From Escherichia coli (lineage in GTDB: Bacteria > Pseudomonadota > Gammaproteobacteria > Enterobacterales > Enterobacteriaceae): a DNA stretch of 64,000 nucleotides. Shown in pieces: positions 20,541-51,070 of the stretch (positions are counted from its first letter, which is position 1; each line of letters opens with the position of its first letter). The stretch is from assembly GCA_002099625.1 (NCBI GenBank), contig GCA_002099625.1_4857.1; one strand, written 5' to 3'. A program made the translations under genes and the position numbers. Under the pieces are notes generated by a model. It saw only the letters and a program-made list of their open reading frames with translations, was not told where the DNA came from and did not search any database.

Positions 20541-20750
20541 ATGAGCATTCGTGAAATCACCGCAGGCAGCGACGTTTCTGGTCTGGTAGAAGCAGGCACC
20601 GTTCAGGTTTCTGGACTGAGCACCGTTACCGAAGTTACCGAAGCGCTGGCTAAGAAAGCCGAAGCTGAAGGCGGCGTAGCATTTAAAGTTACCGCTTGCG
20701 GCGGCAACAACAAAATGTTCGGCAACGCCATCTATTACATAAACGCGTAA
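20541..20750 (+). CDS. small DUF1471 (YdgH/BhsA/McbA)-like protein lacking signal peptide
   Basis: 69 aa; by-eye alignment to BhsA-type mature domain: GTVQVSG...TEALAKKAEAEGGVAFKVT...NNKMFGNAIYY; in-frame stop immediately upstream of ATG excludes an N-terminal signal peptide; GGAGA RBS. Confidence 0.55.
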   Translation: MSIREITAGSDVSGLVEAGTVQVSGLSTVTEVTEALAKKAEAEGGVAFKVTACGGNNKMFGNAIYYINA

Positions 20751-20763: not shown

Positions 20764-20820
20764 AAAAAAGATATAGGTACCCTACTCCCGTTGGGAGTAG
20801 GGTTTACCTTTTATTTTTTT
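20764..20820. terminator. bidirectional rho-independent terminator (approx coords)
   Basis: Stem ACCCTACTCC/GGAGTAGGGT, loop GTTG, A-run before and T-run after. Confidence 0.65.
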
Positions 20821-22140: not shown

Positions 22141-25100
22141 ATGGCTGTCGTCCCTGACCCGCACTATCAAGAACCGGGGAATATGCAGACCGGTGAAGCG
22201 GTAACGCCGATCGGTACTAAGTACCGGATGTTGTTCCCCGCACACGCCCCCTTTTATACCACATCCCTGGTGGTCAAGAGTGGCGGCAAGAAATTAACAT
22301 TAGGTGATGATTACGTCATCACCCATGCGTACGTTACGGGCATGGCACGCACTGGCCATGTTTGTCATGGTGGTGTGTGGATTACCAACCCGAAATATCA
22401 GAGTGGCTTTACACTCGATTACCACGCAATTGGCATCGGTGAAGCCACTGCAGAAATGATCGCCGCAGAACGAGAAGCGAATAAAGATCGCTATCCCGTG
22501 GACTGCCAATGGGATAACGTCATTGGGGATTTATATTTCCCACCGGTCGATATTAAGTTCGACTGGGAAAACTGGCGTGGCGAATCCGAGTTGATGGAAG
22601 CCATTGTTGCGGTTGGCGCTAAGCTCGGTGAAGCGATCAGTCGCGTTGACCCGATTGCTCGTAACACGTTAGACCTTCAATATCGCGCCGGTGTCACGCT
22701 TATCACATCCGAGCAGTATGCGACGTACGACGGTACTGGCGGCTACACGTATAACGCGAAACGTCGTCGTTATTCGTTATCTTACCAGAACACGACGTTC
22801 AATGCGTATTCGTTAGCGGTAAAACACCGTTTACCGAGCATTCCACCGGAAACAACGTTAAACCCAGGCGAGTTGATCGATTGGATGCTCTGTTACGCAA
22901 ACGGTGGGACAAGTATCCTGCGTCTTCAGTTGAAGCAACGCGCGATTTATCTTACCTTAACGACGGCGATTGGTTCTGGTTCGTCTAATTACAGCTATAC
23001 GTTGACGACTGGCCTGACCGATACCGAGTTGGCGGGTGATATTGAGCTTAGCGTGGTCAGACGCGAAGGTAACGGCGTTTACGACATTACCGTTAAAACA
23101 AGCAAGCAAACCGTTAACTACAGCTTTAACGTTGACAACCCACCGAGCGAATTTGCACCAGGGTATCAGAAAACTGATGTCGCAAAATGGTTGAAGTTTA
23201 AATCGGGCGTCAACCTAAACTGGTGGGCAGGTGAGAACGATTACGTCCAGATTCGTTCATTACCAGGCGCACCGGCACCTGACGTTAACAACGACGTGTA
23301 CCAGCTGCTGGTAAAATATCACCAGATTGTCGATAAGCTGTACCGTGATGCACCGGCACATACGCACGTGCCGCGCAAGGATAACCCACATCGCGATTCG
23401 TGGGGCGCAATCCGTGCTTTGGAGAATAACGGTATTGCTTCGGACGCGACACTGGTATACGGAAAAACGCAACCGCAGCTGACAGATTACGTTAACAATC
23501 TGTTGCCGAAACTGTCAACGCTGGCGAATAAGCTTTTACGTTTACCGGCGGCTGCACAGTCTATCAACGGCACTTTCGGTATGAGGCCTGGCCTGACTTC
23601 GATAACGTCAGCAGTGGGTACCGATGAGTCTGAAGGAGTGGGTGCACAATTCACGGTTGACCCGAAGGTTATCCGTTTTATTGGACGCGATTCGCAAACC
23701 GTTAACGCCGGGAACAATCCGATTACATGGCAAGGTGGGGCTAACCAACTCATCCTTTATCCGGATTCCCGTGGATTGGAGTTCAACGGTAAGAAACTAT
23801 TGGACCCTACTACGGTCGGGCCGTACCTGCCGGGTAACGAGTCAGGTGGTGATGGACTGTTTTACGGAACATCCACAGCTACTGTAACCATTAACGGCAA
23901 CGGTATTCAGTCTGTTCCGTTCATTTGTACTTTTGTTCCACCGGAGTCCGACGACCTTGGCCTGATGGCTGTCCGTTTGTTGGCTACTGAATTCGGTGAT
24001 CGTGAGGACTTGGCCGCAACGCCGGCACTCATCAAGAAATTGGATCAGCAGTTTACGGGCAAGTTGGTTGCTGTTAAATCGTACATCAACGACATGCCAC
24101 TGACGAGTTCTATTTACATCGATAAAACTAACTTCGGCTTATCGAACGTACAGAACATCCCAGATGTGCAATTGCCGATTTCCCCGCTCCAACGAGCTGA
24201 GCTGGACAAGTACGCAGTCGTCGGTCACACACACACTCCTGCTGCGCTCGGGATTAAGCGTGCAACAACGACGGAGTTCGGTTTAGTACAGTTCGGCACC
24301 GCGGTTGACGATGCCACGCTGGCATTAGACGGCGGTGAGGTCATCCGACAGGCGGACGCCATCACAGAGATAGAGAAGGTTGCGAAGACAGTCGACTCTG
24401 GTGCTTCAATCAACATTATTCGTTACGGTTTACCCGGCACGGACATCATTGAAAACGGCATCACTTACACCGACTGGATGGTTACTATTAAAGCGAACGA
24501 TTATTTCGTTGGTCGCGAGTACAAAGTACCTCTCTCCACATTTAACTTGGCGGAGCTATTCCCAGCGACGCACGAAGATGCTGAGTTTGGCGTGTATGTT
24601 GACGCGGCGGGCGATGACGGCAAGTACATTATCTACGAAAATCCAAACACGGCAGAAACTGAGACGATGACCAAAATAGGTTCCATCATCACCAGTGAAA
24701 CCGGTGTGGTTTTTGTAGAAATCCGCAACGTGACGCGTTTAGGTGAGTTCCGTGAATTAGGCGAGCATATCGAGGATGATAACGCCCATATTCGTCGGGG
24801 CATGACGCAAGCTGAATTCGGATTTACTTACGGTACTGGCGGGCCTGTGTGGTCCACGGGCGCACCGGGTACAAAACGTATAGATGCCGATTGGCGTTAC
24901 GCGCAGGCTAGCAGCTATACACCTATGTTGAAAGCGGACTACGATCCGGCTGCTGATAAATGGACGTTTAAAACAACCAGTTTATCTGTAACCGATTATC
25001 GTTTTGTCCACAACACATTCCCGATGTTCCAGAATAACGGCATTACCGCAACGTGGACACCTTTAACCGCAACAGCGGACAGTGTGCTAGAAACGGTAAT

Positions 25101-25854
25101 TGGGTGTTGCCATCACTCGGCCACGTTCATGCACCGTATTTCTGTACTCGTCGCACGCACCGCAGGACGTATTACCACTCCAGGCGGCGTGAGCACGTAT
25201 GCGGGAATCGCGGTTAACTACGGACGTGCTGCACAGGTTGTTATTGGTCTGAATGGCGTTACTGGTGCCGGCCATGACTGGACGGCACTTAATCCATCGG
25301 TGCGTTTCAGCCACGCGCGAACAGCGGACGGTATTTCGTTCGTGGGAACGATTAACATCGATTCCAAAACGATTAACTTTGAGCTGACGCTAACCGCGAC
25401 AACAAAGACGCTGAAATACACCTTGCAGTCGACCGGCGAGTCGTGGACTGAGGATTTGTCTACCCGTCTCCGTCCTGACTATATCGACTTGACGAAACTG
25501 ATTACCGATCCGAGTACGCCGATTTATCACGGCGTGGGTGGTTTGTTTAGTTCCGACACAGAAGCGCGTTTGACTTACGCTAACCTGAACACGATGCCGA
25601 CAAAGAATCGTTATTACGCCACGTTCCTTGACTATGCGATTAACTATTCCGGCTTAAACCGCGCAAGATTCTTTACTGGCGTGGTGGATGCAGGTTCAAC
25701 GATCAATGAGATGAACAGCGCGATGTGCAACTATTCATACAGTTCGTTCCGACCAGTGGATACAGGTAAAATTCCACTGGTGGCACACCCGTCCAAGATG
25801 ATGACGTTCAATCCGAAAAACACGTCAGGTCGAACACTTATTATTCGTGATTAA
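22141..25854 (+). CDS. tail fibre protein 1 (1237 aa)
   Basis: AAAAGGAG RBS; HTHTPAALGIKRATTTEFGLVQFG resembles the T4-type fibre repeat H-x-H...A-S/T-x-x-x-G-V/L-V; shares N-terminal region pattern with the next three genes. Confidence 0.8.
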   Translation: MAVVPDPHYQEPGNMQTGEAVTPIGTKYRMLFPAHAPFYTTSLVVKSGGKKLTLGDDYVITHAYVTGMARTGHVCHGGVWITNPKYQSGFTLDYHAIGIGEATAEMIAAEREANKDRYPVDCQWDNVIGDLYFPPVDIKFDWENWRGESELMEAIVAVGAKLGEAISRVDPIARNTLDLQYRAGVTLITSEQYATYDGTGGYTYNAKRRRYSLSYQNTTFNAYSLAVKHRLPSIPPETTLNPGELIDWMLCYANGGTSILRLQLKQRAIYLTLTTAIGSGSSNYSYTLTTGLTDTELAGDIELSVVRREGNGVYDITVKTSKQTVNYSFNVDNPPSEFAPGYQKTDVAKWLKFKSGVNLNWWAGENDYVQIRSLPGAPAPDVNNDVYQLLVKYHQIVDKLYRDAPAHTHVPRKDNPHRDSWGAIRALENNGIASDATLVYGKTQPQLTDYVNNLLPKLSTLANKLLRLPAAAQSINGTFGMRPGLTSITSAVGTDESEGVGAQFTVDPKVIRFIGRDSQTVNAGNNPITWQGGANQLILYPDSRGLEFNGKKLLDPTTVGPYLPGNESGGDGLFYGTSTATVTINGNGIQSVPFICTFVPPESDDLGLMAVRLLATEFGDREDLAATPALIKKLDQQFTGKLVAVKSYINDMPLTSSIYIDKTNFGLSNVQNIPDVQLPISPLQRAELDKYAVVGHTHTPAALGIKRATTTEFGLVQFGTAVDDATLALDGGEVIRQADAITEIEKVAKTVDSGASINIIRYGLPGTDIIENGITYTDWMVTIKANDYFVGREYKVPLSTFNLAELFPATHEDAEFGVYVDAAGDDGKYIIYENPNTAETETMTKIGSIITSETGVVFVEIRNVTRLGEFRELGEHIEDDNAHIRRGMTQAEFGFTYGTGGPVWSTGAPGTKRIDADWRYAQASSYTPMLKADYDPAADKWTFKTTSLSVTDYRFVHNTFPMFQNNGITATWTPLTATADSVLETVIGCCHHSATFMHRISVLVARTAGRITTPGGVSTYAGIAVNYGRAAQVVIGLNGVTGAGHDWTALNPSVRFSHARTADGISFVGTINIDSKTINFELTLTATTKTLKYTLQSTGESWTEDLSTRLRPDYIDLTKLITDPSTPIYHGVGGLFSSDTEARLTYANLNTMPTKNRYYATFLDYAINYSGLNRARFFTGVVDAGSTINEMNSAMCNYSYSSFRPVDTGKIPLVAHPSKMMTFNPKNTSGRTLIIRD

Positions 25855-25866
25855 GGAGATTTTTGA

Positions 25867-28800
25867 ATGAAAACGTATCCTTACGATCCTCGGGGTGTAA
25901 ATCCTGAGTGTCACTTCATCGAGGAACGTATCATCGACTCCGACAATCCTAACGATCGGGTGGTGATGCTAGATCATCGCCCGTTTTTCGAAGGATTGGT
26001 GGTAAGGCTCGCCGGCTCGTCCATACCGCTTACCCGCGGGACGGACTATGAGCTGGAGTATGCTTTAACACCGTTGGACGACTCGGTGACGACCCCGGTG
26101 TTTTGCGGGGTGCATCTTATTAACCCTAAACTGCGTGGTGCGGTGGTCTTTGAAGGCCAGATGCTCGGGGGTACGTTTTACAGTGGTTTGATTGAGATGT
26201 TGGATGAGCTAGTTAAGGCACTCAACAATCCAACGGCTGCAGATTGGCTGCTTTTAGGTAATCGTCCTTCCCTGTACCCAGCCACTCCTGCAGCGGTAGC
26301 TTGGTCAGACATGCTGAATAAAAAGTATGTTGCCTCTGCAGTGCATGATGTGGAGTTAGATGCCGGGGCGGCCAACGAGCAGATCCGTGAAAAGCTTACT
26401 GAGCTGAAAGATGCGGTTTTGGGCTTAGGAACTGAAATCGCCACATTTAACTACCCCGGACACATTGCGTCCACTAACCCTCATGGGACTACCGCGGCGC
26501 AGGCCGGTGCGCATCCTGTCAACCTGAAAACGCCAGATACTTTCCTGGCGTATGGAAAGACGTTGCGTCAGTTAACCAACGAGGTCCGTGCACTGGGTCT
26601 GCAACAATCGGATATCGACAAGTACATTTCTAAATGGGTGTCGAAAGAATCCAAAGGGGTGTTTAATGCGACGATATCCGGTACTCGTGCCCTGTTCCGT
26701 TCTCCTGCTGGTGAATCCGAAATTGTGTTCTCTGCTGAGGCATTCACTCTTAAATCTAATGGCTCTGTTGTGTTGGCGTGTGGGTATGCCGACACTACTG
26801 GAACCGTCCGGTTTATGGAGTGGAAAGCAGGCATCAATACATTACGTATTGAGTCGACTGGCAGTGCCTTGGGGATGGATAAGCTGACGCTTAATGGTAC
26901 GACGTTACTGACCACAACTGCTCTCATGGGCTATCAACAAGACCCTGGTACCAGCGGTGGTACCGTTGACCCGGATGACAACAAACTGTACATTAGCGGG
27001 GTGAACGGCATTACTTTCACGGGTAAAGGGTCAAAAGCCGATCCCGTCACCGGGAAGGTCACAGCCAAACCCGCGACGACCTCTGAACCTGGCGTTGTGA
27101 CGTTGACCGATAAGCCGAGCGATGTAGTCAAAGGACAAGCAGCCACCCCGGCTTCGCTCTTACCATACGAGGGTGATCTGTCTTCGTACGTCAGGAAGAC
27201 AACGCTGCTGAATAACCAGCCGATGGACACCGGTAGCCGAACGCTAACGAAAAAGGATTTGGGTCTGGACTTGGCTGATAACACAGCTGACGTCGATAAA
27301 CCACTTTCTGATGCGTTGGCAGAAGCAGTTACCGATCTTAGTGATAAAGGTCACCATCACAACTTCGCCGATTTACAGATCCCAACGGCTTCTCAAACAG
27401 TTCCCGGTATCGCTCGATATTCTACCAACCTAAATAGCTTGTCGGATAATCGCGGCGTTACCCCGAACGTACTGAACGATTTGTCAAAACGTTTAGACGT
27501 AGTTGCAGCTGCGCTAGCAAACGCGAAAGAGGACACCGTGACCGATTTTGCCGCTGTGCGCGGTAAGACTTGGACTGTGGGATCTACACGTACCACAGTC
27601 GCCGTAACGGATTTGAATTATTTCTATCTGTTAAATGGTGCACGTAAAGAGGGGACGGTATCTGGTTCGATAGACCTGCAAACCACACCGATGTTCCAGT
27701 GGTTCTCTCCAGATAACCGTATGGAAAGAACGTGGCAGAACGCGGTAATTAATACCGGTGCCGGTATTGATTTTAGTGGGTTTGAGGTTGCCGTCCCGGA
27801 AACGAACTACGGTGCGCAGATTGGTTTAACGACAACCGGAATGGGTGATTTGTCAGTCGTTAACCTCTTGGCGAAAACGTGGGTTCGTTGCGACTCTGGT
27901 AAGCTGCGGATTTGGGTTCGTGGCGGTGGTGCTGTTTCTGTTTATCTGGACGGTGAAATTATCGGTGCGGGTATTACAGAAGCGGGGTATCTGGAGGCGA
28001 CTGTCAAGGAGGGATGGAAGCAACACTGCTTAGCGTTCCGTGCAGAGTGTAACGATAGCGCTAAAGCGGCTGCAATCCGTTTCACAATCTACGACGGTGA
28101 CTTTGCGGTTGGGGCCTCTGATAAAAACACCAAGGTTGCTCGCCTTCAGGAGTTTGTTAAGACTCCGAACGGTTTAAGGCATTACCTTTACGTGAACATG
28201 ATAACCGATGCGTTATATTCACGCGCCGAACCTATTGTGGACACGGAAGGTATTAACCTGGAACGTGGGTATATCGGCCACATTGATGTCCCTGACGCGG
28301 GATTGGTTGCAGGCACGACTTACGAGTTTGAAACGACATTTGATTTTGGCATGGCGTCCGAACTTAAACGGCACTTCGAAACACGTCTAGCACACGGGGT
28401 GAGTAACACCGACTGGTCGTTGACGGATAACCCGAAAATGCTGCCGTTGAATAAGGTTGATCCATTACCTAAACAATGGCTGTATGCGTATCCAACTAAC
28501 CCGTCTGTATCTGGGGATAACCTCGTTCGTTTAGATCGTGGGTTATTTGATTATAAATTCGTAAGTGCCACCTCGCTCAGGATTCTTCTTGCGGCGGTTG
28601 TTTCCACTGAAAACGCGTCCCCGTATTGCTGGTTTACACCAAGCAACCCGAAAGAAAATGGAATGGCGACATTCGAGGGTTCGGTGGTAATCGACACTGA
28701 TTATCCTGAAGTCCCAAAAACCTCGGACGTCGAAGTTTCATTAAACTTCATGGCCCCTTCTGCTGATGGGAAAGGTAAAACCAGAGTCCTGCGGTGGAGT

Positions 28801-29997
28801 AACTCCCACACCAGTTTAAACTGCGGCTTTATTGCTGCGCCGTACGATAAACCAACCGGAAGAATTGCCACCACACAATCCAGCGTTACTAATACGCTGG
28901 TTGATGCTCCTCGTGTAATCAAGAGCGTGGATGTTCAGTCGCCTGACTGTTTAGACTATCTCCCGGTTTCAATCGCTAGCGAGTTCGCAGCCATTGGTTC
29001 GCGCTGGCTTATTCGTTATCGCTATATTGTTGATACGCAGATACTGCGAATATCGTCGATTAGTAAGATAGGTGGGCAGGCTTCGGCGACTGTTCGTGAG
29101 ATAGAATACGACATTCCGTTTGACGCGATTGATTATTTTAAAGGTGGCGCTTTATCGATTGGTGTTACTGGCCTCGAAACTGGTGAAGGCGTCACAATCA
29201 ACCACGGTTTGATGGACCCTTCCACAACAGAAGTGGATTTAAATCGTTTCCATTATCTACGCTCGCTATTTGAGTCGTATATTGAGCGTTCTCCGGACAG
29301 CCAGTCTTCTGGGCATGAGGAGATGTCGATATCAACCGTCGCGTTCGCGAACTTTGGAGATAACGTCGATAACCCGGTTACGGAATACATCACGATGTCT
29401 GCTGCAAGTGAGGGTTATCCGGAACTTGCACCGAACGGTAAACTCCCCGCACCGTTTTACAAAGGGCTGCAGAAACGTGGTGCTCCGCTACTTGAGTCGG
29501 CTCCTGCAGACTATACGTCTAACGGTGGTGAATGGAAGTACGGCTTTATGCGGGCTTATCGCCCAACTCAAAATGAGCGTTTTGTGTCGGTAAATGGGAC
29601 AATGCTCTCTAACTACCCTGGATATATCATCGTGGGTAGTGAGAAAATTCCGGGTAATGTTATACCTTTCAGTGCATCGACAACAGCTGTTCAGATATCT
29701 GGGACTCTTGCCCGCACGAAACCGATGCAGCCAATTCACATCGTGTTCGTGCCTCCGGAAGGTTCTGTGCCGCCGCTGCAAGCGAAGTTCACTATTAACG
29801 GTGTGGGTAGTAGTGGTAATCCGATGTTCGTGATTACTGAAACGACACCGGTGGAACTTCGCACGGGTGGCGAGACGATTCTCATTGAGAAGCGTAATCC
29901 ATTCCACATCCCCACCAGGACATGGGATTGGATTTTACAAACGTTGGATACTGAACGTAGAAACGAAGGCAACAACTCGGGTGAGTGGGCCTCTTAG
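25867..29997 (+). CDS. tail fibre protein 2 (1376 aa)
   Basis: TAAGGAG RBS; motifs HHHNFADLQIPTASQTVPGIARY and KPATTSEPGVVTLT (fibre-repeat-like). Confidence 0.8.
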   Translation: MKTYPYDPRGVNPECHFIEERIIDSDNPNDRVVMLDHRPFFEGLVVRLAGSSIPLTRGTDYELEYALTPLDDSVTTPVFCGVHLINPKLRGAVVFEGQMLGGTFYSGLIEMLDELVKALNNPTAADWLLLGNRPSLYPATPAAVAWSDMLNKKYVASAVHDVELDAGAANEQIREKLTELKDAVLGLGTEIATFNYPGHIASTNPHGTTAAQAGAHPVNLKTPDTFLAYGKTLRQLTNEVRALGLQQSDIDKYISKWVSKESKGVFNATISGTRALFRSPAGESEIVFSAEAFTLKSNGSVVLACGYADTTGTVRFMEWKAGINTLRIESTGSALGMDKLTLNGTTLLTTTALMGYQQDPGTSGGTVDPDDNKLYISGVNGITFTGKGSKADPVTGKVTAKPATTSEPGVVTLTDKPSDVVKGQAATPASLLPYEGDLSSYVRKTTLLNNQPMDTGSRTLTKKDLGLDLADNTADVDKPLSDALAEAVTDLSDKGHHHNFADLQIPTASQTVPGIARYSTNLNSLSDNRGVTPNVLNDLSKRLDVVAAALANAKEDTVTDFAAVRGKTWTVGSTRTTVAVTDLNYFYLLNGARKEGTVSGSIDLQTTPMFQWFSPDNRMERTWQNAVINTGAGIDFSGFEVAVPETNYGAQIGLTTTGMGDLSVVNLLAKTWVRCDSGKLRIWVRGGGAVSVYLDGEIIGAGITEAGYLEATVKEGWKQHCLAFRAECNDSAKAAAIRFTIYDGDFAVGASDKNTKVARLQEFVKTPNGLRHYLYVNMITDALYSRAEPIVDTEGINLERGYIGHIDVPDAGLVAGTTYEFETTFDFGMASELKRHFETRLAHGVSNTDWSLTDNPKMLPLNKVDPLPKQWLYAYPTNPSVSGDNLVRLDRGLFDYKFVSATSLRILLAAVVSTENASPYCWFTPSNPKENGMATFEGSVVIDTDYPEVPKTSDVEVSLNFMAPSADGKGKTRVLRWSNSHTSLNCGFIAAPYDKPTGRIATTQSSVTNTLVDAPRVIKSVDVQSPDCLDYLPVSIASEFAAIGSRWLIRYRYIVDTQILRISSISKIGGQASATVREIEYDIPFDAIDYFKGGALSIGVTGLETGEGVTINHGLMDPSTTEVDLNRFHYLRSLFESYIERSPDSQSSGHEEMSISTVAFANFGDNVDNPVTEYITMSAASEGYPELAPNGKLPAPFYKGLQKRGAPLLESAPADYTSNGGEWKYGFMRAYRPTQNERFVSVNGTMLSNYPGYIIVGSEKIPGNVIPFSASTTAVQISGTLARTKPMQPIHIVFVPPEGSVPPLQAKFTINGVGSSGNPMFVITETTPVELRTGGETILIEKRNPFHIPTRTWDWILQTLDTERRNEGNNSGEWAS

Positions 29998-29999
29998 GA

Positions 30000-30074
30000 C
30001 GGACTGCCTACGGGCGGGTAGTCCGTAGGTAAACCGCCCTTCCGTTATTGGGAGGGCGGTCTCCGTTTTATTAC
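30000..30074 (+). terminator. tandem hairpins followed by T-run (terminator/attenuator, approx coords)
   Basis: Hairpin 1 CGGACTGCCTACGGGCGGGTAGTCCG; hairpin 2 CCGCCCTTCC-GTTATT-GGGAGGGCGG, then TCTCCGTTTTATTA. Confidence 0.5.
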
Positions 30075-30092
30075 AGATTAGGAGTGTTTGCA

Positions 30093-33000
30093 ATGCCGAG
30101 AGAAGATGCGGCGCAGTTTAACGGTACCCTCAGTACCGCTACTTACCCGAACCGTTATTCGACGGTCATTCCCGTCGAAGCACCGTTCTATCGCATCGGG
30201 TTAACGTTAACCGTTACCGATAAAACAACCGGAACCAAACGCAAGTTAATAGAAGGTCTTGATTATTTCTTAGGACATTACTTCCAGGAATTAGCCGAGG
30301 CTGAGAACGATGCAATATACGGCAGCATAATGCTGCTGAACGCCACAGAGGTAGAATACGAGTTGTTGTCGGTTGGTCGACAGTATCGCATCCCTGCTTC
30401 TGAAATCGGCAAGTATCTGGTTAAGACGGATATGAAAGACCCACGCAACTGCGATTGGTCTGAGCTGATGAAATATCCGCCGATTATCTCGCCAATCGAC
30501 CCGCCAAAAGATCTCGAAGAAGCCATCCTTCGCGATGAGATTGTAAAGGCGCTGGAAGATATCCGACTGGGCATTTTAGAACGTGCCCACGAACTGGATG
30601 AGGCTTTTGCCGAAGTTACCGATTTGATTTATCAGAACGGTAAAAAGGTGTTTGATGACGAAATGTATCAACACCATCTGATTAAAAATGCACATGGTTA
30701 CACCTGTGGCGATATCGGTGCACTCCCTGTGCTCGGTAAGGCCGTGGATGCGACTAAGGCGTTTGGACGTACACTGGCAGAGTTAGTGACGCTAATGTCT
30801 ACCAGCGGTATCCAACAGAAACATGTTGACATGCTTCTGGATAATACCCTGGGTGATTTACTGGGCCGTATGCGTGTTCTGAATAACGACGCGATTACGT
30901 TCCAAACAACGTCTGGCCACGTTATCAGCATGAAGGGTGAGAAGTTCATCATCACCTCGACAAAACCGCTGGTATTAAAAGCTGACCAGGATAACAACGA
31001 ACCGGGTATCGCTACGGAGTTCAGTGCTGGTCTGAACACGCTTTGGGTTCACTCGGGTAAAGCAGGTGACAAGTGGGGCGCTTATGATGCAGGTGTGCTT
31101 GCTCCTGTGTATAACAGCGTCTATCTCGTTACACCGGATATGGTTAAGATGTACTTGACCTCGGTGAAGATACTTCCAGCAAACGCCTACTTCAAGTCCA
31201 GCGACACGTTGAAGATTTACGGCTCTGGTAAAGAAACAAACAAAGTTTACATGAATGCGGAACTGCCTGCAGCAACCACAACTGTGCAGGGCTTGTTTGC
31301 GATTACTAACCTTTCGGCGTCCGCTGCAGCGTCCACAGCGATTTCCCAAAAAGCTGTTACTGACTTGAAGAACAAACTAGACGGATATGTGGACGACACG
31401 TATACGGTCAATGGTAAAGGGTTTGTGTTAGACGAAAACGGTCAAATGCATTTAACATTAACCGCGTCGGATTTCGGTATTGAGAAGATGAACAATACCG
31501 GACCGCTGGAGAAACCGGTTACTAATGCGTTGCGCACCGTGCTATCAGGCAAGGCACTCTCAACACACACCCACACCATTGCTGATCTCGATAACGTGCC
31601 GTACGCATCCACGTCTGTTACAGGTTTGGCTAAACTGTGGGATGCTATTGACACCACAACAGATAAGATGGTTACTGCCCGCCAGGGTTTCTTGCTCGAA
31701 CAGAAAATCGGTACACTGAATGACAAGATTGCTACGTTGTTGCCGGCATGGACCGTTGGCGGATCATCGTACGGCAACAATAACTTCTTGCCTATACCTG
31801 TCCAGGGGAACTACGAAGGGTACACCAAAAACCAAACTTGGCAAAAAGGACTGGCGCGTTACGAGGCTGGTAAGGTTTACTCGTTGCGTAATGGTTCCAA
31901 CGGGAACCCGCCAGGTGACTGGGCTATCTATTACGCCTATGCTGATGTGTCGCCAAGCAATACGCTGGAAAATATGCAGCAGACGTCCGTACGTTATCAC
32001 CCCGCTGGAATGTCGGCGTATCCTGGGGTGAATCTGGTTGCTATTCTGATTACCGGTACAGATGCAATGATCTGCTTAGGCAGTGACTATGCGTATTATC
32101 TGGTCATCTTTGACGGCACCATTGACCATGCAAAACATCATCGCGTTGTTAAAGTTTACTTGGGCGATTACCGAAATGGTAACGCGGCCGGTGTGATTAC
32201 AACCACACCATGGGTTGCCGATCCATCAACAAACGATTTGATCGTTTGCAACGATCGGGTTTATCTACTCCGCACTGTCCTTACCTCCGGTGACTATTTC
32301 GTGAGTATGCGTAGCATCGCACTCAACGAACTTAATCTGGGTGGTAGCAACACGTTTGTGGCGGATGTGTTAACAGGTGGGATGTTAACGTCGGGAGATA
32401 ATATCTACTTGCGTCAGGGTCAGAAACGTTCTGATACAGATGTGTTGGTAGCGCCAGTAACACAAATCTACGCAGATGCATCGGCGAAGTGGAATAGTGC
32501 GCGAAATTTCGTCCATGGTCCGGAATGTAATCACGCGATTGCTGTGGATGGGCTGAACTTTCGTGTTGGTTTAACGCCAACAGTCTGGTTTGCTTCTACT
32601 ACAGGGCAAACTATTAACTTTAAACAATGGGTGTCAAGCTTTGTTGTTGATTGCAGTTCAATGACGGTAACGCTGGAAGGTGCCGATCGATTCCCTATCG
32701 TGGCCGATCTTACCACGGTCCGTTATAACGGCGGGGCTGAGATTGGGATTCCGAGCCGGAAGTGGGGCGAAGGTCAAGCTAATAACCGAACCTTTGCAAC
32801 ATCGCAAGACAAGTATATTGTTTCGCAAGGACATGCAGGCGATCGCGACCTAATGCCTTATGTCACGATTACAACGTTAGATGACGGTGTGAGTTGGTAC
32901 GAGTACCTGTCGTGTGACTACAACTTCACTGCCAGAAGTTTTAGTGCGGTAATGTTAAACCAAGGTCGTGGTTCTATCTACGAGCTGGGTATGGCGTATC

Positions 33001-35276
33001 CGCTGACTCTGGGAGCGAATTCCAGACTTATCTGGTTGTCACAACCGCGTTCCCGTTTGGCAATTGAAGTTGAGTTTGATCCGAACACCACTTACTCAGG
33101 TAAGGCGGGGTATGGCCCAACTAACAATCGTCGTGTAGTAGATTCTATCACGTATGAGAATCTGTCGCAGATGTGCCACATTGTTACACCGGCGTCGCCT
33201 GGTACAGAGTTAAACGGCTGGTATTGCACAGGACCAGAAACATTCCCTTACCACAACGTTTCCGGCACTTTCACGATTCATGCCGATCGATTGACGCTGT
33301 CACAAGCTGAATGGGATAAGATGAAGCAGATGATCATCGACGGAGCACCGGCAGGCGCTGCGAATGGTTATGCTTCGGAATTTATCCTTGCTGCAAATAA
33401 CGCAGGAAAGGCATTGTTTTCCGTTTGGTTCATCGGCATCGGAACGGCCACACCGCTCACATTAGCACAAGTAGCATGTACACGTACTGTGAACAATGTT
33501 AACTTGTTAGATATCTACTACTTTACACTGAAACCAACAATCAGCAACGGGCAGGTAACATTCCCCGCAGCGATATTGGCACTGTTTGACTTCTATAACA
33601 ACCTCGACTATGGCTTGAACTATGCTACGTTGGGAGAGATAACGGGAGGAAAAACACGCCGGCCGGGACAACCTACCATGGTGTCGGTAGATGGTACGCA
33701 GTTCGGGTTGTATCTTCCACACACGTTAACCTTGCGCCAGATTGGCGACTTGGGTGCGCTTAACTACGCTGCTGGTCTTACGCTGTCTAATGGTACCTGG
33801 ACGCGTTCTTCTGCACCACACGGCGTTGGACGTATGGCACCGTCACACACTCCAGTCAGCCCAGCTTATCTGGCTCATCGTGATCAGGTGATGCTACACA
33901 ACTCATCTCTCGACTACGTCTATTGTGGTGGTATCGCAATGTCGTCGAGTGATTTTGTTGCACGTCCGAGTTTCGGTGGGGCGACTGAGACTGTTGTTAT
34001 CGCCGGTGTGGAAACAGCCGAAGGTTGGCTGGTATATGTGACTGAGGAAGTTAACCTGCGTTTCGGCTCGAGCACTTATAAGCTGCCTACGTGGTATATT
34101 GACCTCAGCGCAGCGTTTCCAACAAACCATCAGAACCGGACATTCTACCTGCACGCTAAGGTAGAAAATGGTACACCGAAGTACGTAATGGACGTGGTTC
34201 AACATCCAGACACTGAAACGGAACTCTACATCGGGTATGTTAAAACGGGCTCGTCGCGAGTCGTCGAGACTAACGTCGACCATGCTAAGCGATTGGGGGC
34301 GGTAAAACAGCTGTTGGAACACGCGGCGGTTGAGAATAAGCATGATGTGGAAGTGGGAAGGGATGCAGCAACGGGCAGACTGGCACCATTGCGTAAAGAA
34401 GCGATGGGTCCTTTGTCAGTCGATGCTACGAAAGGCTATCTGGATAGTCAGTTGCTTTATACCGTATCTGACGCACAGCGTCGCGGTAAAGCGATGGTGT
34501 CCAAACGTTTCGAAGGCTTGAAAACTTTGCCGGCGTTTACTCAGGCAAACAAGTCGGGGGCGTTTTGGAAACATCCTACAACAATCGCGACGGTAACGGC
34601 CGACGAGAACAGTGAAGCGACATCGTTGGGTATGGAGTGGGTAGGTATTCCAACGCCCGCTTTCGCTCCGACTTCAACAAACTTGATGGTGGTGGTGCAA
34701 AGTAAATTCGTCGTCCCAGGTACACTGGGAGTAGAAACGACCTTTAATGTCCACGTTGCCCCATGGGAGGCGGTGGATGGCTTTTTCTACAACGTCGAGG
34801 CGGAAGGTACGGATGTTAACATTGACGAAAATCCAGAAGTGTTATTGCCGTCACCACATACCGTGCACCACAAACAGCACTCTCTGCCAGCAGGCGTGCC
34901 GTGCACCTTTACATTTGTCGCGGCGGTAAGTTCTTCAGCGCTCGAAACAGCTAACCAGCATATTTGCTCTTGGCTTTTCACGGACGCTGGGGGTCTACCA
35001 ATCACCACCGATCTTTCGGATAGTAAGATTCAAATCTTACCACAGTCGGGAGAGACCAACGGCACACCAGTTGTTCTGAACAGTCGTAGCTACACGTTTA
35101 CGAATGTGACAGGTGCAATCCCGGTTGTTACCACGGGCGCTCAGGGTTTATTCCCACCACCGATCGTGGCGTGGGATGGCGATGATCTTACGTTAACGAT
35201 TGCGCACGATTGGGTGAACGAGAGAGGACGTCAACAGCCTGATATTATCCAGGTCAATCTTATGTTCCGTACCTAA
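30093..35276 (+). CDS. tail fibre protein 3 (1727 aa from Met16 of track ORF 30048..35276)
   Basis: GGAGTG RBS 6 nt before internal ATG; motifs HTHTIADLDNVPYASTSVTGLAKLW and PAATTTVQGLFAIT. Confidence 0.8.
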   Translation: MPREDAAQFNGTLSTATYPNRYSTVIPVEAPFYRIGLTLTVTDKTTGTKRKLIEGLDYFLGHYFQELAEAENDAIYGSIMLLNATEVEYELLSVGRQYRIPASEIGKYLVKTDMKDPRNCDWSELMKYPPIISPIDPPKDLEEAILRDEIVKALEDIRLGILERAHELDEAFAEVTDLIYQNGKKVFDDEMYQHHLIKNAHGYTCGDIGALPVLGKAVDATKAFGRTLAELVTLMSTSGIQQKHVDMLLDNTLGDLLGRMRVLNNDAITFQTTSGHVISMKGEKFIITSTKPLVLKADQDNNEPGIATEFSAGLNTLWVHSGKAGDKWGAYDAGVLAPVYNSVYLVTPDMVKMYLTSVKILPANAYFKSSDTLKIYGSGKETNKVYMNAELPAATTTVQGLFAITNLSASAAASTAISQKAVTDLKNKLDGYVDDTYTVNGKGFVLDENGQMHLTLTASDFGIEKMNNTGPLEKPVTNALRTVLSGKALSTHTHTIADLDNVPYASTSVTGLAKLWDAIDTTTDKMVTARQGFLLEQKIGTLNDKIATLLPAWTVGGSSYGNNNFLPIPVQGNYEGYTKNQTWQKGLARYEAGKVYSLRNGSNGNPPGDWAIYYAYADVSPSNTLENMQQTSVRYHPAGMSAYPGVNLVAILITGTDAMICLGSDYAYYLVIFDGTIDHAKHHRVVKVYLGDYRNGNAAGVITTTPWVADPSTNDLIVCNDRVYLLRTVLTSGDYFVSMRSIALNELNLGGSNTFVADVLTGGMLTSGDNIYLRQGQKRSDTDVLVAPVTQIYADASAKWNSARNFVHGPECNHAIAVDGLNFRVGLTPTVWFASTTGQTINFKQWVSSFVVDCSSMTVTLEGADRFPIVADLTTVRYNGGAEIGIPSRKWGEGQANNRTFATSQDKYIVSQGHAGDRDLMPYVTITTLDDGVSWYEYLSCDYNFTARSFSAVMLNQGRGSIYELGMAYPLTLGANSRLIWLSQPRSRLAIEVEFDPNTTYSGKAGYGPTNNRRVVDSITYENLSQMCHIVTPASPGTELNGWYCTGPETFPYHNVSGTFTIHADRLTLSQAEWDKMKQMIIDGAPAGAANGYASEFILAANNAGKALFSVWFIGIGTATPLTLAQVACTRTVNNVNLLDIYYFTLKPTISNGQVTFPAAILALFDFYNNLDYGLNYATLGEITGGKTRRPGQPTMVSVDGTQFGLYLPHTLTLRQIGDLGALNYAAGLTLSNGTWTRSSAPHGVGRMAPSHTPVSPAYLAHRDQVMLHNSSLDYVYCGGIAMSSSDFVARPSFGGATETVVIAGVETAEGWLVYVTEEVNLRFGSSTYKLPTWYIDLSAAFPTNHQNRTFYLHAKVENGTPKYVMDVVQHPDTETELYIGYVKTGSSRVVETNVDHAKRLGAVKQLLEHAAVENKHDVEVGRDAATGRLAPLRKEAMGPLSVDATKGYLDSQLLYTVSDAQRRGKAMVSKRFEGLKTLPAFTQANKSGAFWKHPTTIATVTADENSEATSLGMEWVGIPTPAFAPTSTNLMVVVQSKFVVPGTLGVETTFNVHVAPWEAVDGFFYNVEAEGTDVNIDENPEVLLPSPHTVHHKQHSLPAGVPCTFTFVAAVSSSALETANQHICSWLFTDAGGLPITTDLSDSKIQILPQSGETNGTPVVLNSRSYTFTNVTGAIPVVTTGAQGLFPPPIVAWDGDDLTLTIAHDWVNERGRQQPDIIQVNLMFRT

Positions 35277-35323
35277 CAGATAGCGCTATGGGGCAAGGAA
35301 GCCCCAATCAAAGGAGTTTGGCA

Positions 35324-36526
35324 ATGGCCGAAATCATTTATCAGTACCCGCTTGACCTTACCGGGACATTAACGTCGAACGCCGTTACGCGGCGTATTAC
35401 GTTAGGTTCTGGTAAAGTTAACCGGGCTTTTGCATTTCCTGACGGAGCTTTCTACGCGGATACCTTCCGCTTGGCGGCTGCGAATAAACCAGGTGTCTAC
35501 CCGTACAAACGCGGCACAGACTACGAACTGATTTTTGCACATACTGCATATCAGAAAATGACCAAGAACCGCGAAGTGGTCATGGGTGTGGTGGTAACTA
35601 ACTCGGCCATTCCTACTGATATCGAAGTCTCTGCGCAAGTCGTTGGTGGTTTTCAGTCCGCGAACGTCGAAGGTATCCGACAAGCGATTGCGTCGTTGAA
35701 AATTGAAGACCGTGTGGTGGACTTCAAGGATCTTCGAAACGTACCTGATACGTTCCCATCCGCCCCGACGTATAAAGACCTTGGCGATATCTACGGTTTT
35801 GAGTATATCATTACCGTACTCGCTGGGATTAAAGATGCGATTAACTCCGGCTCTGCAGTACAGCTGGAAGAAATCAAAGGTATTCTGGACGGTCTGAAAA
35901 ACGACTTCCTCGATGCCTTAAATGCCCACGTCAACGCCGAAGGTAACGTACACAATCTCGACATTCATCAGGTTAATGGCCTGACGGAGACGGAGATTCG
36001 TGCTCTGATTCAAAGTGTACAGACTGCCATTGACGCCACTATCAAAGATATCGGCGACTTAAGAGCAGCAGACACGGCGTTGGGACAACGCATCGATGCA
36101 GTTGTGGCTTCGTTAGCCGCGTGGAACGACCAGCTTAATGTAGTTGCTCAAAATTACCAGAAAATGTCGTTAGCATTAGCTAACCTTAATTCTCTGGTGT
36201 TGCAATTACAGAAGAAGGTTAACGATCTTCAGTCTGCGCTGAATGAAACAAATCAGCGTGTCACGGATCTTGAGAATCAGGGCAAAGACTTCCAACAGCA
36301 AATTGATAACCTGCAAGGACAAATCAACAGTCTTAAAACTCAGGTTGTAAACAACACCAACGCAATTTCGCAGGCAAACCAGAATCTGGCGAACCATGCG
36401 GCTGCGGATAACCCACACCCGAATTACCTCCATAAACAGTATGGCGGTGTTGTGCAGGCTGCTGTTCACGTCAACAACAACCTCACCTCGCGCGACGATG
36501 TTCAAGCTGAAGCGGGTACTAAGTAA
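35324..36526 (+). CDS. tail-fibre-associated coiled-coil protein (400 aa from Met13)
   Basis: AAGGAG RBS 7 nt before internal ATG; N-terminus resembles those of the three large fibre genes (RGTDYELIF...); long Q/N-rich coiled coil. Confidence 0.7.
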   Translation: MAEIIYQYPLDLTGTLTSNAVTRRITLGSGKVNRAFAFPDGAFYADTFRLAAANKPGVYPYKRGTDYELIFAHTAYQKMTKNREVVMGVVVTNSAIPTDIEVSAQVVGGFQSANVEGIRQAIASLKIEDRVVDFKDLRNVPDTFPSAPTYKDLGDIYGFEYIITVLAGIKDAINSGSAVQLEEIKGILDGLKNDFLDALNAHVNAEGNVHNLDIHQVNGLTETEIRALIQSVQTAIDATIKDIGDLRAADTALGQRIDAVVASLAAWNDQLNVVAQNYQKMSLALANLNSLVLQLQKKVNDLQSALNETNQRVTDLENQGKDFQQQIDNLQGQINSLKTQVVNNTNAISQANQNLANHAAADNPHPNYLHKQYGGVVQAAVHVNNNLTSRDDVQAEAGTK

Positions 36527-36591: not shown

Positions 36592-36984
36592 ATGGCGATA
36601 TCTATTAAAGACGTCAGAAACCGCGTCCAGATAGTCGAAGCTAACATGGCGACAGGCCCCCGTATCGACGCGCAAGTGGCCTCTAAAGCCCATAATGCGG
36701 CAGACCGATTTGGGGGTTGGACGAAAGCACAGCTAGATTGCGGCGGGACATGTTCTTGGACGTGCTCTAACGGTTGCTCGCATGGCTGTTCGAGCTGTTC
36801 AGGAAGCTGTTCTGCTTCTTGTATCGGTAGCTGTTCTTCGACGTGTGGCGGTAACTGTTCTGGTTGCTCTGGTTGTTCTGGTGGTTGCAGTAGTAGCTGT
36901 ACCGGTAACTGTTCAGGTGGTTGCGGCGGCTCTTGTTCCGCAAACTGCTCCGGGGCCTGCTCCGGCGGCTGTTCAGGTCGCTAA
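36592..36984 (+). CDS. Cys/Ser/Gly-rich precursor-like peptide P1 (130 aa): ~50-aa leader-like N-terminus plus 21-Cys repeat core
   Basis: AAGGAAG RBS; N-terminus MAISIKDVRNRVQIVEAN...; core DCGGTCSWTCSNGCSHGCSSCSGSC... with Cys every 3-4 residues; ends CSANCSGACSGGCSG. Confidence 0.65.
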   Translation: MAISIKDVRNRVQIVEANMATGPRIDAQVASKAHNAADRFGGWTKAQLDCGGTCSWTCSNGCSHGCSSCSGSCSASCIGSCSSTCGGNCSGCSGCSGGCSSSCTGNCSGGCGGSCSANCSGACSGGCSGR

Positions 36985-36994: not shown

Positions 36995-37399
36995 ATGGCA
37001 ATTGGATTAAAAGAACTGAATAACCGATTAAACACGATCGATGCAAACGCTTTAAAGAACACCACGAATGTGCAAAACTACATTCGCAATAAAGCTACGA
37101 ATAACGCCGACTTGTTCGCAGGTCAAGGCCGTTCGCACTATGACTGTGGCGGCACATGCTCTTTTAGTTGCTCGAGTTGTTCTGGCGGGTGTACTGGGTC
37201 CGCTACGGGTGGTTGTGGGTCGACTTGTTCCGCAAACTGTGTATCGGGCTGTAGCAGCAGCTGTACGGGCTGTAGCTCTTCGTGCTCGGGTGGTTGTAGC
37301 GGCACGTGCACAGGCAGCTGTTCTGGGGGTTGTGGTAAATCCTGCTCCGCAAACTGCTCAGGTGCGTGCTCTGGTGGTTGTTCAGGTCCTAACTCCTAA
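36995..37399 (+). CDS. Cys/Ser/Gly-rich precursor-like peptide P2 (134 aa)
   Basis: RBS AAGGGGG; N-terminus MAIGLKELNNRLNTIDAN... paralogous to P1; core about 21 Cys; same C-terminal CSANCSGACSGGCSG block. Confidence 0.65.
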   Translation: MAIGLKELNNRLNTIDANALKNTTNVQNYIRNKATNNADLFAGQGRSHYDCGGTCSFSCSSCSGGCTGSATGGCGSTCSANCVSGCSSSCTGCSSSCSGGCSGTCTGSCSGGCGKSCSANCSGACSGGCSGPNS

Positions 37400-37643: not shown

Positions 37644-38531
37644 ATGAAAAACGATTTGCATCTTGCGTATAAAACCACATTCAACCACCCGCTGCATCTA
37701 TCTTCCCCAGACTCGGTGCGTGCACACCTCGCTGACAAAGTCAGACTGATTGCACAGATTCCTGGTGAGTGGCCAAAGGTTCGTGGTCGCTTCTTGACCG
37801 ACAAGAAGAACTACACCGTAGAAAATACGTTTAAGATCCGTGATATGGTTGCAGAGGCCATCGTTATCTTTAACGGCGATGGTAACTCTCGCGGCGTGTT
37901 AGTCGACGGTAAGTATTTCTTCAGTGAAGGGATTTTGAACAACAGCGTCGATTTAGAACTGATGTTTACACCGTTTGACGAACTTGAAGCAAAACCGATG
38001 GCGCGCCGTTGGTGGAGTCCGGACTATCTGGGCTCGTTCCCTTACTACTTTGTACTGGTACCTGCCGATACGGAAACGTATTTCGACACCGAACCATACA
38101 TCGATATCGAGGGGTATAAAGAACTCGGCATCACCCGTTTAGCGGACATGATGGCGTATAGCTATAAGTTCGTGTGGGATAAAAAGCGTTCTGTCTGGTA
38201 TGCGCTGACTGACGATTTTGAAATCACCAAGCGTATTCGTAAGCCGTGGATGCAACACCTGGTTCAAACTCGATATGGGGATTACCCGGCGACAGAAGCG
38301 GATTTGAGTAAGCTGGTAAGTTTCCTCTTAACGAAGGTGGATTTAACGAAAGAAGAAGCAGAAGCTGTTTCTGAGATTCGTGGTCGTTCGGTAACGTTGG
38401 CCGATTTGAAACGTCTGAACGAAAGACACGCCGACCTGAACAAAATTTTAGCTGCCTATCACGACCCGATGTTACTGGTGCCTGGCGCTAACGTAGACGA
38501 AGATCCTTTATTCGCCATTGATTATATTTAA
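37644..38531 (+). CDS. hypothetical protein (295 aa) in peptide/rSAM operon
   Basis: ORF with RBS, between peptide genes and rSAM genes; no motif recognised. Confidence 0.65.
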   Translation: MKNDLHLAYKTTFNHPLHLSSPDSVRAHLADKVRLIAQIPGEWPKVRGRFLTDKKNYTVENTFKIRDMVAEAIVIFNGDGNSRGVLVDGKYFFSEGILNNSVDLELMFTPFDELEAKPMARRWWSPDYLGSFPYYFVLVPADTETYFDTEPYIDIEGYKELGITRLADMMAYSYKFVWDKKRSVWYALTDDFEITKRIRKPWMQHLVQTRYGDYPATEADLSKLVSFLLTKVDLTKEEAEAVSEIRGRSVTLADLKRLNERHADLNKILAAYHDPMLLVPGANVDEDPLFAIDYI

Positions 38532-38553
38532 AAATATACTGGAGCAACCTGCA

Positions 38554-39468
38554 ATGACAGATCAAGTAGAATCCAGGATCTCGTCTGAACTGTACGACAA
38601 ACCGTCAATTCTGTCGGTTGTCGCAACTTCTAAGTGTAACTTAGACTGTAGCTTCTGTGGAGGGGCTTATTACATGGATAGAGAAGATACTTCTCGTGAG
38701 TTTCAACGTGAAGAGATTCTCTCGATTTTAGAGAAGAATCCGGATATCGGTGAGATTCATTGGACGGGCGGTGAGCCGCTGTTAGCGCAGCGTAAGATTG
38801 AAGACTTCGTGAACGAGTTGAAGGAGTCTCATCCGAACCTCCGTCATCACATGTACACCAACGGTTTAAAGATGCGTAAATCACATCTGCCGTTGCTGAA
38901 ACAGTTCGACCTTATCTTTGTGTCCATTGACGGCTACAAGAAGTCGGAACGTCCGTTTATGAACTTTGTAAACGGTGGTAATCACGAAGCGCTGGAAGTG
39001 CTGTACGAGCTGGACAATTATTACACCTGGGGTGTGATGACGCGTGACCAGTTAGGCGATAAACGCTGGTACGAAGATTTCATCGAGCTGCACCGAGCAA
39101 TCTATCATTACCGTCCAGGTGGTGTGTCGTTGTTGTTTGATGCGATGATGCCGAAACCGTTATCGCCAGACCACGTCATGAACTTCATGTACGGGTATTG
39201 GAAAATACTCGACAATATCGAACGCCTTAACATGCAGAACGACTCTGAATGTGGGCTTGCGATCAGTAAAATGTTCGATACCGAGTGCAACACGTGCAGT
39301 GAAGTGCTGTGGCTTAACGCCGACGGTACGCAGGAGCAAATTCAGAACGCCCCAGAGATATTGGAAGTCGGCTGTAATCGCCTGGCGCGTTCTATCGGCG
39401 TTGATGCGTATAACTACATCAACCGTGTAATTTCTGCTAAGCGTAAACGGGCGGCGAACAATGAGTAA
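38554..39468 (+). CDS. radical SAM enzyme 1 (304 aa from Met13)
   Basis: CNLDCSFCGG (C-x3-C-x2-C) near N-terminus; WTGGEPLL glycine-rich SAM motif; additional C-terminal Cys (C-x12-C-x2-C...C) suggesting an auxiliary cluster. Confidence 0.75.
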   Translation: MTDQVESRISSELYDKPSILSVVATSKCNLDCSFCGGAYYMDREDTSREFQREEILSILEKNPDIGEIHWTGGEPLLAQRKIEDFVNELKESHPNLRHHMYTNGLKMRKSHLPLLKQFDLIFVSIDGYKKSERPFMNFVNGGNHEALEVLYELDNYYTWGVMTRDQLGDKRWYEDFIELHRAIYHYRPGGVSLLFDAMMPKPLSPDHVMNFMYGYWKILDNIERLNMQNDSECGLAISKMFDTECNTCSEVLWLNADGTQEQIQNAPEILEVGCNRLARSIGVDAYNYINRVISAKRKRAANNE

Positions 39469-48977: not shown

Positions 48978-48987
48978 TGCAACGTCC

Positions 48988-49028
48988 TAAAAAAAGAAAA
49001 TAGGCCCCGAAGGGCCTATTTTTAGCTG
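48988..49028 (-). terminator. rho-independent terminator (approx coords)
   Basis: Stem TAGGCCC/GGGCCTA, loop CGAA, flanked by A/T runs. Confidence 0.55.
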
Positions 49029-49051
49029 TTATGGTGAAGTACGCTATCCCT

Positions 49052-49144: not shown

Positions 49145-49155
49145 ATTAGCTCCTG

Positions 49156-50058: not shown

Positions 50059-50061
50059 GTT

Positions 50062-51060: not shown

Positions 51061-51070
51061 CTGTTACTCC

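Follow-up and report, generated by a model that had tools for sequence, protein, structure and literature searches.

The peripheral fibres of jumbo phage baseplates have been described in most detail for phiKZ. In the atlas of that virion, 12 peripheral fibres dock beneath gp130, the base of a fibre consists of six gp131-like N-domains with a six-helix bundle, the proposed composition is three copies of gp131 together with gp133, gp134 and gp135, and the authors liken these fibres functionally to the short fibres of T4 (PMC13250141). In SPN3US, gp168, gp169 and gp170 form 'Paralog family C', a set of low-abundance virion proteins similar to phiKZ gp131 that are absent from tail-less mutant particles and are regarded as baseplate or tail-fibre candidates, with gp168 listed as 'expected essential' (PMC5694885, PMC5105663). 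SPN3US gp171 is essential and tail-associated (PMC5105663), gp167 is a virion protein that has no head assignment in the published proteome, and flagella have been reported as the receptor of the phage (PMC11428620). Here, we analyzed four consecutive genes at positions 22141-36526 of a 64,000-nucleotide (nt) stretch of DNA from an Escherichia coli assembly (contig GCA_002099625.1_4857.1; hereafter the window), which an initial annotation, made from the letters alone, had read as giant fibre genes of the T4 type.

The 14.4-kb region matched the jumbo phages of the SPN3US group over its full length at 96-98% nt identity, including 98.2% to Salmonella phage 1252 and 96.3% to SPN3US (100% of the query covered). 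Its genes corresponded one to one with the SPN3US record, the four consecutive genes with SPN3US_0170, SPN3US_0169, SPN3US_0168 and SPN3US_0167 in that order and the divergent open reading frame (ORF) on the minus strand with SPN3US_0171 (Table 1). Protein lengths were identical, and the amino acid (aa) identities to SPN3US were 97.8% for gp170, 98.3% for gp169, 95.4% for gp168, 99.5% for gp167 and 99.8% for gp171. On these sequence comparisons, the window is assigned to an SPN3US-like chimallivirus of the genus Seoulvirus, a nucleus-forming jumbo phage, and the four genes to orthologs of the already-described gp170, gp169, gp168 and gp167, whose names we use below. The four consecutive ORFs of 1237, 1376, 1727 and 400 aa given in the initial annotation proved to be real, with starts backed by Shine-Dalgarno (SD) sequences.

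All four proteins carried an N-terminal module of ~200 aa with a G-x-D-Y motif, which would be expected at aa 41-75 by chance in about 0.5-0.9% of cases per protein. A four-way alignment contained the invariant columns F38, G55, D57, Y58, N83, G98 and E101 (gp170 numbering). When profiles were built from the first 200 aa of seven genomes per ortholog group, every pair of the four modules, gp167 included, reached a profile-profile probability of 94.7-99.0%, and the related N-terminal regions that the initial annotation had noticed were thereby confirmed. With E-values computed for a nominal database of one million, the hidden Markov model (HMM) of the gp168 orthologs recognized both gp169 (E = 4e-43) and gp170 (E = 7e-35), and sequence comparison placed the paralogy of gp170 to gp168 in three segments. 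Against a profile of phiKZ gp131/133/134/135, each of the four modules reached an hhalign probability of 97.9-99.7%, with gp167 at 99.7%; the closest phiKZ relative of gp167 was gp135 (63 bits).

A search of 1.84 billion proteins with the module profile returned 3068 cluster representatives, 2058 of them at E <= 1e-10. Among the 150 matches listed, which ranged from 219 to 2164 aa in length, the module was located at or close to the N-terminus, with the sole exception of a 262-aa protein that matched only the tail of the profile. These matches indicate that the N-terminal module serves widely as an anchoring adaptor, to which interchangeable distal parts are attached.

The protein encoded divergently from the four genes linked the locus to a solved structure. 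In a phmmer search of the whole PDB, the gp171 ortholog matched chain 9xqd_L, 'PHIKZ130' (E = 4.1e-11, aa 19-401 against 16-413), and blastp aligned it with phiKZ gp130 at 67 bits. The minus strand encodes the gp130 homolog, the plus strand the paralogs, and the same divergent arrangement was found in phiKZ, in Erskinevirus, Machinavirus, Wellingtonvirus and Derbicusvirus, and in a Vibrio phage. The five-gene cassette was present in phiEaH2, SPAsTU, pEa_SNUABM_8, Kwan, Phobos and Vibrio phage pVp-JHP1101. An AlphaFold2 (AF2) monomer model of gp168 aa 1-600, the only one of the four proteins modelled over this part, placed a beta domain at aa 10-130 (predicted local distance difference test, pLDDT, 81-90) ahead of a helix at aa 141-195 (pLDDT ~70-79). 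The predicted order, an N-domain followed by a long helix, is the one that the structural description of phiKZ requires.

We consider it probable, at roughly 80%, that the region is a peripheral baseplate-fibre cassette of an SPN3US-type jumbo phage, in which anchors of the phiKZ gp131 type dock under the gp130 homolog. Each of the four proteins would begin with such an anchor, composed of a ~130-aa beta domain carrying G-x-D-Y and a helix of ~50 aa. Homology with the phiKZ virion predicts that six of these modules and their helices bundle together and that the bundle docks at the outer baseplate rim, beneath the gp171 ortholog. The three giants would then extend through a histidine-bracketed shaft of ~290 aa, in which the histidine clusters may serve as inter-chain metal sites, and end in diverged, fast-evolving distal domains that we infer to contact the host, namely flagella and possibly also a cell-surface receptor. 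The short gp167 would act as a conserved coiled-coil strut. The cassette is a known system, made of SPN3US orthologs of phiKZ-type peripheral fibres, and no new kind of system.

Several points weigh against this reading. There is no baseplate structure from the SPN3US group, and the homology from which location and docking are deduced amounts to 20-28% identity. The N-terminal gp168 model gave no significant Foldseek match in the PDB, whose copy of gp131 covers aa 374-771 only (4GBF) and lacks the N-domain. Shaft residues 200-600 of the same model had low confidence, as is expected when an oligomeric fibre is modelled as a monomer. No catalytic or binding residues were identified in the cassette proteins. 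The published spectral counts, on which copy numbers were estimated, differ 1.4-fold between sheath and tube at equal copy number, and their scatter is nearly as large as the effect.

We then examined the parts of the giants that follow the anchor. The shaft of ~290 aa common to the three proteins measured 281-293 aa across seven genomes and was bracketed by two conserved histidine clusters. The first cluster, which directly follows the helix, surrounds N-[PA]-H and reads H-x6-H in gp169 and gp168 or H-x-H-x7-H in gp170. The bracketing residues were H194/H201 and H492/H494 in gp168, H199/H206 and H496/H498 in gp169, and H407/H409/H417 and H696/H698 in gp170. In each giant, an H-x-H was followed 9-13 aa later by A-[ST]-x4-G and a hydrophobic residue, a combination with a chance of ~1e-3 per protein as estimated from shuffles. 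The H-x-H site was kept in 7/7 genomes of several genera at about aa 480-496, and in the gp170 orthologs at about aa 690 because these contain a 200-aa insertion; for gp168, invariance was assessed on 61 aligned sequences, orthologs of gp168 and of gp169. H-x-H counts in gp170, gp169, gp168 and gp167 were 2, 1, 1 and 0, not above the level seen after shuffling, and the H-x-H here is a single conserved site and no repeat. Of the motif described in the initial annotation for the three large proteins, the H-x-H with the A-S/T element is thus present and conserved, with four variable positions instead of three and with one site per protein.

Conservation differed along the proteins. Between the window and phiEaH2, anchors and shafts were 60-90% identical and distal parts 15-40%; the gp170 insertion at aa 196-393 was 15-24% identical with flanks at 75-91%, and gp167 and gp171 were uniformly ~81% identical. 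Relative to SPN3US, gp168 carried 80 substitutions, compared with 27, 24 and 2 in the other three proteins, and three hotspots were recognized in it (Table 1). In the first of these, 10 of the 11 substitutions relative to Proteus phage 7 fell within aa 751-800. A conserved anchor combined with variable tips is the usual signature of an attachment region with host-contacting tips, and the gp168 hotspots are candidate receptor-contact sites.

For gp168 aa 560-1727, an AF2 model was obtained with a pLDDT of 85.6 and a predicted template modelling score (pTM) of 0.68. The best fold matches of this distal part were weak and included beta-propeller glycosidases, sialidases and lectins, as well as sandwiches resembling phage receptor-binding proteins and carbohydrate-binding modules. 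The seven-bladed propeller of phiKZ gp131 (4GBF) was not among the best 60 of these matches. The model predicts a propeller-like domain and sandwich domains, from which we draw no catalytic conclusion. Part of the sandwich region recurs in gp170, where aa 787-1044 aligned with positions 1299-1487 of the gp168-ortholog HMM and, by blastp, aa 740-883 aligned with gp168 aa 1282-1417. For gp169, a profile search against the PDB gave only a sub-threshold lectin-like match (E = 0.016). Profile searches of the PDB with the gp168, gp169 and gp170 ortholog alignments yielded nothing solid, and single-sequence searches with all four proteins yielded nothing relevant, the matches of gp167 being coiled-coil noise.

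The initial annotation had interpreted the four proteins as T4-type long or short tail fibres, kin of gp12, gp34 and gp37, composed of repeated H-x-H metal-binding repeats. Such an origin would be in line with the single H-x-H of each giant and the A-[ST]-x4-G behind it, with sub-threshold matches to PF03406 in gp170 (E = 0.15) and PF12789 in gp168 (E = 0.015), and with the functional comparison to T4 short fibres drawn by the phiKZ authors. However, the PF03406 match scored 12.1 bits where the cut-off is 22, and gp169, gp168 and gp167 had no match to this family; the H-x-H counts did not exceed those of shuffled sequences, whereas T4 gp37 contains 8 (gp34 contains 0); blastp against a four-sequence database of T4 gp34, gp35, gp36 and gp37, with gp12 left out, gave a best E of 0.23; and no T4 fibre appeared among the PDB sequence, profile or fold matches of the cassette proteins. 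Kinship failed in every test run, the sequences place these proteins outside the T4 fibre-repeat family, and we regard the T4-type origin as very improbable. A functional analogy, with inter-chain histidines binding metal, is possible. The designation as fibre-class proteins is supported through the phiKZ gp131-type homology, in a family other than that of T4. Alternatively, the giants might be mainly structural, enlarging the baseplate periphery as scaffold or 'star lobe' mass while other proteins carry out adsorption. The gp168 distal model, a compact multi-domain body (pTM 0.68) and not a thin fibre, would agree with this, as would the lack of a recognizable receptor-binding or enzymatic Pfam domain in the giants and the bona fide Gp38 adhesin domain in another protein of the window. 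We nevertheless consider it improbable, given that Salmonella and Erwinia phages differ strongly in the distal parts but share conserved anchors, that within-species substitutions cluster in hotspots, that the homologous phiKZ proteins form fibres, and that reports place the Gp38-domain protein in heads and not in tails.

Within the favored reading, a peripheral fibre cassette of the phiKZ type, the chains could be combined in more than one way. Published SPN3US spectral counts, calibrated on capsid, sheath, tube and portal proteins, gave estimates of about 8-21 copies for gp168, gp169 and gp170, about 24-34 for gp167 and about 5-8 for gp171. By analogy, we lean toward 12 fibres, each with three gp167 and one each of gp168, gp169 and gp170, because the estimates fit this composition and it mirrors phiKZ; we give it about the same likelihood as separate homotrimers. 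Phage fibres are as a rule homotrimeric, and each protein might form its own homotrimer, giving several separate fibre or spike types (e.g., six of each) with their own receptor specificities. Within error, the spectral counts would allow 18 copies of each, the 200-aa insertion is present in gp170 and absent from the others, and gp170 and gp169 do not follow the 8-aa difference that separates the gp168 shaft of the window from that of SPAsTU. The phiKZ precedent, a six-chain base to which three paralogs contribute one copy each, speaks against separate homotrimers, as do the spectral count over mass (SC/M) of gp167, which is 1.35-1.9 times that of the giants and corresponds after calibration to ~2-3 times the copy number, and the constant co-occurrence of the three giants in the same order with near-equal shafts of 281-293 aa. 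We place the odds of separate homotrimers somewhat below even. A more specific arrangement, which is less likely than not, would have gp168, gp169 and gp170 co-assemble 1:1:1 into a heterotrimeric shaft that then splays into three receptor-binding heads, with a gp167 homotrimer completing the six-chain base. One H-x-H per chain would supply six ligands, enough for one octahedral metal ion that could keep the chains in register, and if this were true, one fibre would combine three specificities, e.g., for the flagellum and for cell-surface receptors. Co-variation of shaft length across the seven genomes gave no clear signal and leaned slightly against the heterotrimer: spacing was similar, and the one clear indel, the 8 aa in gp168 of SPAsTU, had no counterpart in gp170 or gp169.

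As for other structural classes, the assignment to a tape measure or baseplate hub that would have contradicted the fibre call did not occur. HMMs of these classes produced only weak PHROG tape-measure matches on the gp167 coiled coil (E = 1.5e-4 and 1.6e-3), and this candidate was rejected; the full-length best matches of the four proteins were phrog_7557, phrog_8078, phrog_7449 and phrog_2163.

The 12 further fibre-like paralogs that had been proposed downstream turned out to belong elsewhere. Positions 47658-63758 of the minus strand contain 15 tandem paralogous ORFs of 276-498 aa that constitute one family, DUF7941 (phrog_1037, phrog_3589, phrog_1062 and phrog_2935), and blastp detected no match between them and the four fibre proteins at E < 0.1. 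They correspond to SPN3US Paralog family B, which is found in tail-less particles and labelled 'Head' in the published proteome. These paralogs are thus reported head proteins and appear, by sequence, unrelated to the fibre family. The neighboring gp155 ortholog combines a DUF7941 domain with an adhesin domain (Table 1), the latter matching PF05268 at E = 4.8e-18 (66 bits against a cut-off of 25) and containing the glycine-rich motifs GRGGSGM, GGGGGGDYY, GGAGGAPLGPGAA and GGPGGDWGQPG. SPN3US gp155 is listed as a head protein in the published proteome, and its ortholog here may be a head-borne adhesin. Two genes away from it, gp157 (43840-44481, minus strand) matched DUF1353 and phrog_1158, 'tail assembly chaperone', and is also listed as a head protein.

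Table 1. Positions of the fibre cassette, its conserved sites and associated features in the window (proteins named after their SPN3US orthologs)
Feature	Position	Strand	Details
gp171 ortholog, phiKZ gp130 homolog, 420 aa	20811..22073	-	Divergent from the cassette; phrog_3337 match
gp170 ortholog, 1237 aa	22141..25854	+	SD and ATG; full-length phrog_7557 match
gp170 parts		+	N-module aa 1-195; lineage-variable insertion ~196-393; shared shaft ~394-726; distal 727-1237
gp170 H-T-H, aa 696-698	24226..24234	+	A-T-T-T-E-F-G-L at aa 708; H696 invariant, H698 nearly so (10 orthologs)
gp169 ortholog, 1376 aa	25867..29997	+	Full-length best PHROG match phrog_8078
gp169 parts		+	N-module aa 1-200; shaft to ~560; distal 561-1376
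gp169 H-H-H, aa 496-498	27352..27360	+	A-S-Q-T-V-P-G-I at aa 508; H496 and H498 invariant in 23 orthologs
GC-rich 12-bp hairpin	30033..30060	+	In the gp169-gp168 spacer (95 nt); best terminator-like match of the region
gp168 ortholog, 1727 aa	30093..35276	+	SD and ATG; full-length phrog_7449 match
gp168 proximal parts		+	N-domain aa ~10-130; long helix 141-195; shaft to ~560
gp168 distal parts (predicted)		+	Propeller-like ~586-1054; helices 1071-1103; beta-sandwich ~1107-1399; flexible linker 1403-1468; C-terminal beta domain(s) 1470-1725
gp168 H-T-H, aa 492-494	31566..31574	+	A-S-T-S-V-T-G-L at aa 505; H492 and H494 invariant
gp168 hotspot 1, aa 701-800 (in propeller-like region)	32193..32492	+	21/80 substitutions vs SPN3US; 11/41 vs Proteus phage 7
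gp168 hotspot 2, aa 1251-1300	33843..33992	+	9 substitutions vs SPN3US; 8 vs Proteus phage 7
gp168 hotspot 3, aa 1651-1700 (C-terminal beta domain)	35043..35192	+	7 substitutions vs each comparator
gp167 ortholog, 400 aa	35324..36526	+	SD and ATG; phrog_2163 match
gp167 parts		+	gp131-like N-module aa 1-200; coiled coil ~215-360; short His-rich C-terminus
gp155 ortholog, 725 aa	45466..47643	-	DUF7941 (aa 11-154, E 2e-23) fused to PF05268 GP38 tail fibre adhesin (aa 373-553)

An aGGAG SD sequence was located ahead of each of the four cassette starts, 22141, 25867, 30093 and 35324. The mechanically called ORFs begin at TTG 30048 in the third gene and at ATG 35288 in the fourth; ATG 30093 and the second ATG at 35324, both backed by SD sequences, yield the 1727- and 400-aa products. 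ATG 30093 is favored as the true start of gp168 because the hairpin at 30033-30060 overlaps the TTG. This hairpin has a T-rich tail behind it and could be an attenuator or an RNA-stability element within the fibre operon. A similar palindromic hairpin was observed at 20779-20803, directly past the stop codon of the gp171 ortholog. A sigma-70 promoter scan of the region gave fewer matches than shuffled sequences, as is expected because the phage uses its own RNA polymerases. In the fourth gene, many coiled-coil Pfam matches fell at aa 213-373 of the 412-aa ORF.

Other genes around the cassette were recorded in passing. A 69-aa ORF (20541-20750, plus strand) lies between a baseplate gene and the gp171 ortholog; it is a small protein of bacterial type within a tail region of the phage, its annotation in related phage records being DUF1471 / BhsA-like stress protein, and its SPN3US counterpart, gp172 (7 kDa), was detected in virions. 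Right after gp167 are two tandem ORFs of ~130 aa (36592-36984 and 36995-37399, plus strand) that are similar to each other (blastp E < 1e-5), a stretch of which SPN3US records annotate only a part, as a 336-nt hypothetical gene (SPN3US_0166). About 2 kb downstream of the cassette, two adjoining radical-SAM-domain genes (38518-40789, plus strand; SPN3US gp164 and gp163) hold the same position as in the Erwinia phages pEa_SNUABM_8 and Kwan. Beyond the window, homolog searches with gp170 and gp169 were dominated by near-identical sequences from Salmonella and E. coli assemblies. Proteins 98-100% identical to gp170 occurred on ~240-kb contigs in scores of NCBI isolate assemblies of Salmonella enterica and E. 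coli, and many Salmonella assemblies as well as one Shigella assembly contained ~222-kb contigs of a second lineage, whose gp169 homolog measures 1393 aa. Such occurrences suggest that sequenced isolates often bring jumbo phages with them, in a carrier state or pseudolysogeny.

The cassette likely holds host-range determinants of broad-host-range, flagellum-dependent Salmonella jumbo phages that are being explored for biocontrol. To the existing description, the present analysis adds an explicit tie to the 2026 phiKZ baseplate structure via the solved gp130, the placement of gp167 in the same anchoring family, the definition of a conserved histidine-bracketed shaft module, and the predicted distal fold of gp168 with its variation hotspots as candidate receptor-contact sites. 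It also removes two wrong leads, the kinship with T4 and the reading of the downstream paralogs as fibres.

Compared with known systems, the cassette resembles T4 gp12, gp34 and gp37 in that these are likewise baseplate-attached fibres of host adsorption, and its H-x-H could ligate an inter-chain metal in the manner of the H-x-H iron sites of the gp37 needle. T4, however, has a series of H-x-H sites and a different anchoring module, whereas each chain here has one site and no sequence or profile membership in the T4 family. The peripheral fibre complex of phiKZ (Nat Commun 2026, PDB 9XQD) has a homologous N-terminal anchoring module with a following helix, N-P-H-type motifs after the helix, a homologous docking protein and an identical divergent gene arrangement. 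In contrast to phiKZ, where one medium and three short proteins of 457-771 aa are found, the window encodes three giants and one short protein, the giants being 1237-1727 aa long; their ~290-aa shaft with the conserved H-x-H had no detected counterpart in phiKZ gp131-135, their distal domains are unrelated in sequence to those of phiKZ, and phiKZ gp132 has no equivalent in the cassette. The Erwinia phages phiEaH2, pEa_SNUABM_8, Kwan and Phobos and the Vibrio phage pVp-JHP1101 show the same landmarks, G-x-D-Y and an H-x-H at about aa 490. In pVp-JHP1101, the gp170 counterpart lacks the 200-aa insertion, and a 131-aa protein annotated as 'tail fiber assembly protein' (L011 18626-19021) is encoded between the third giant and the short paralog, a cassette position at which the window has no counterpart of it. 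The window is closest to SPN3US, whose genes it shares in identical order and length (95.4-99.8% aa identity), and represents a strain variant of it, in which the 80 aa differences in gp168 are concentrated in the three hotspots. The published SPN3US paralog family comprises gp168-170 only, whereas in the window gp167 shares the N-terminal module as well.

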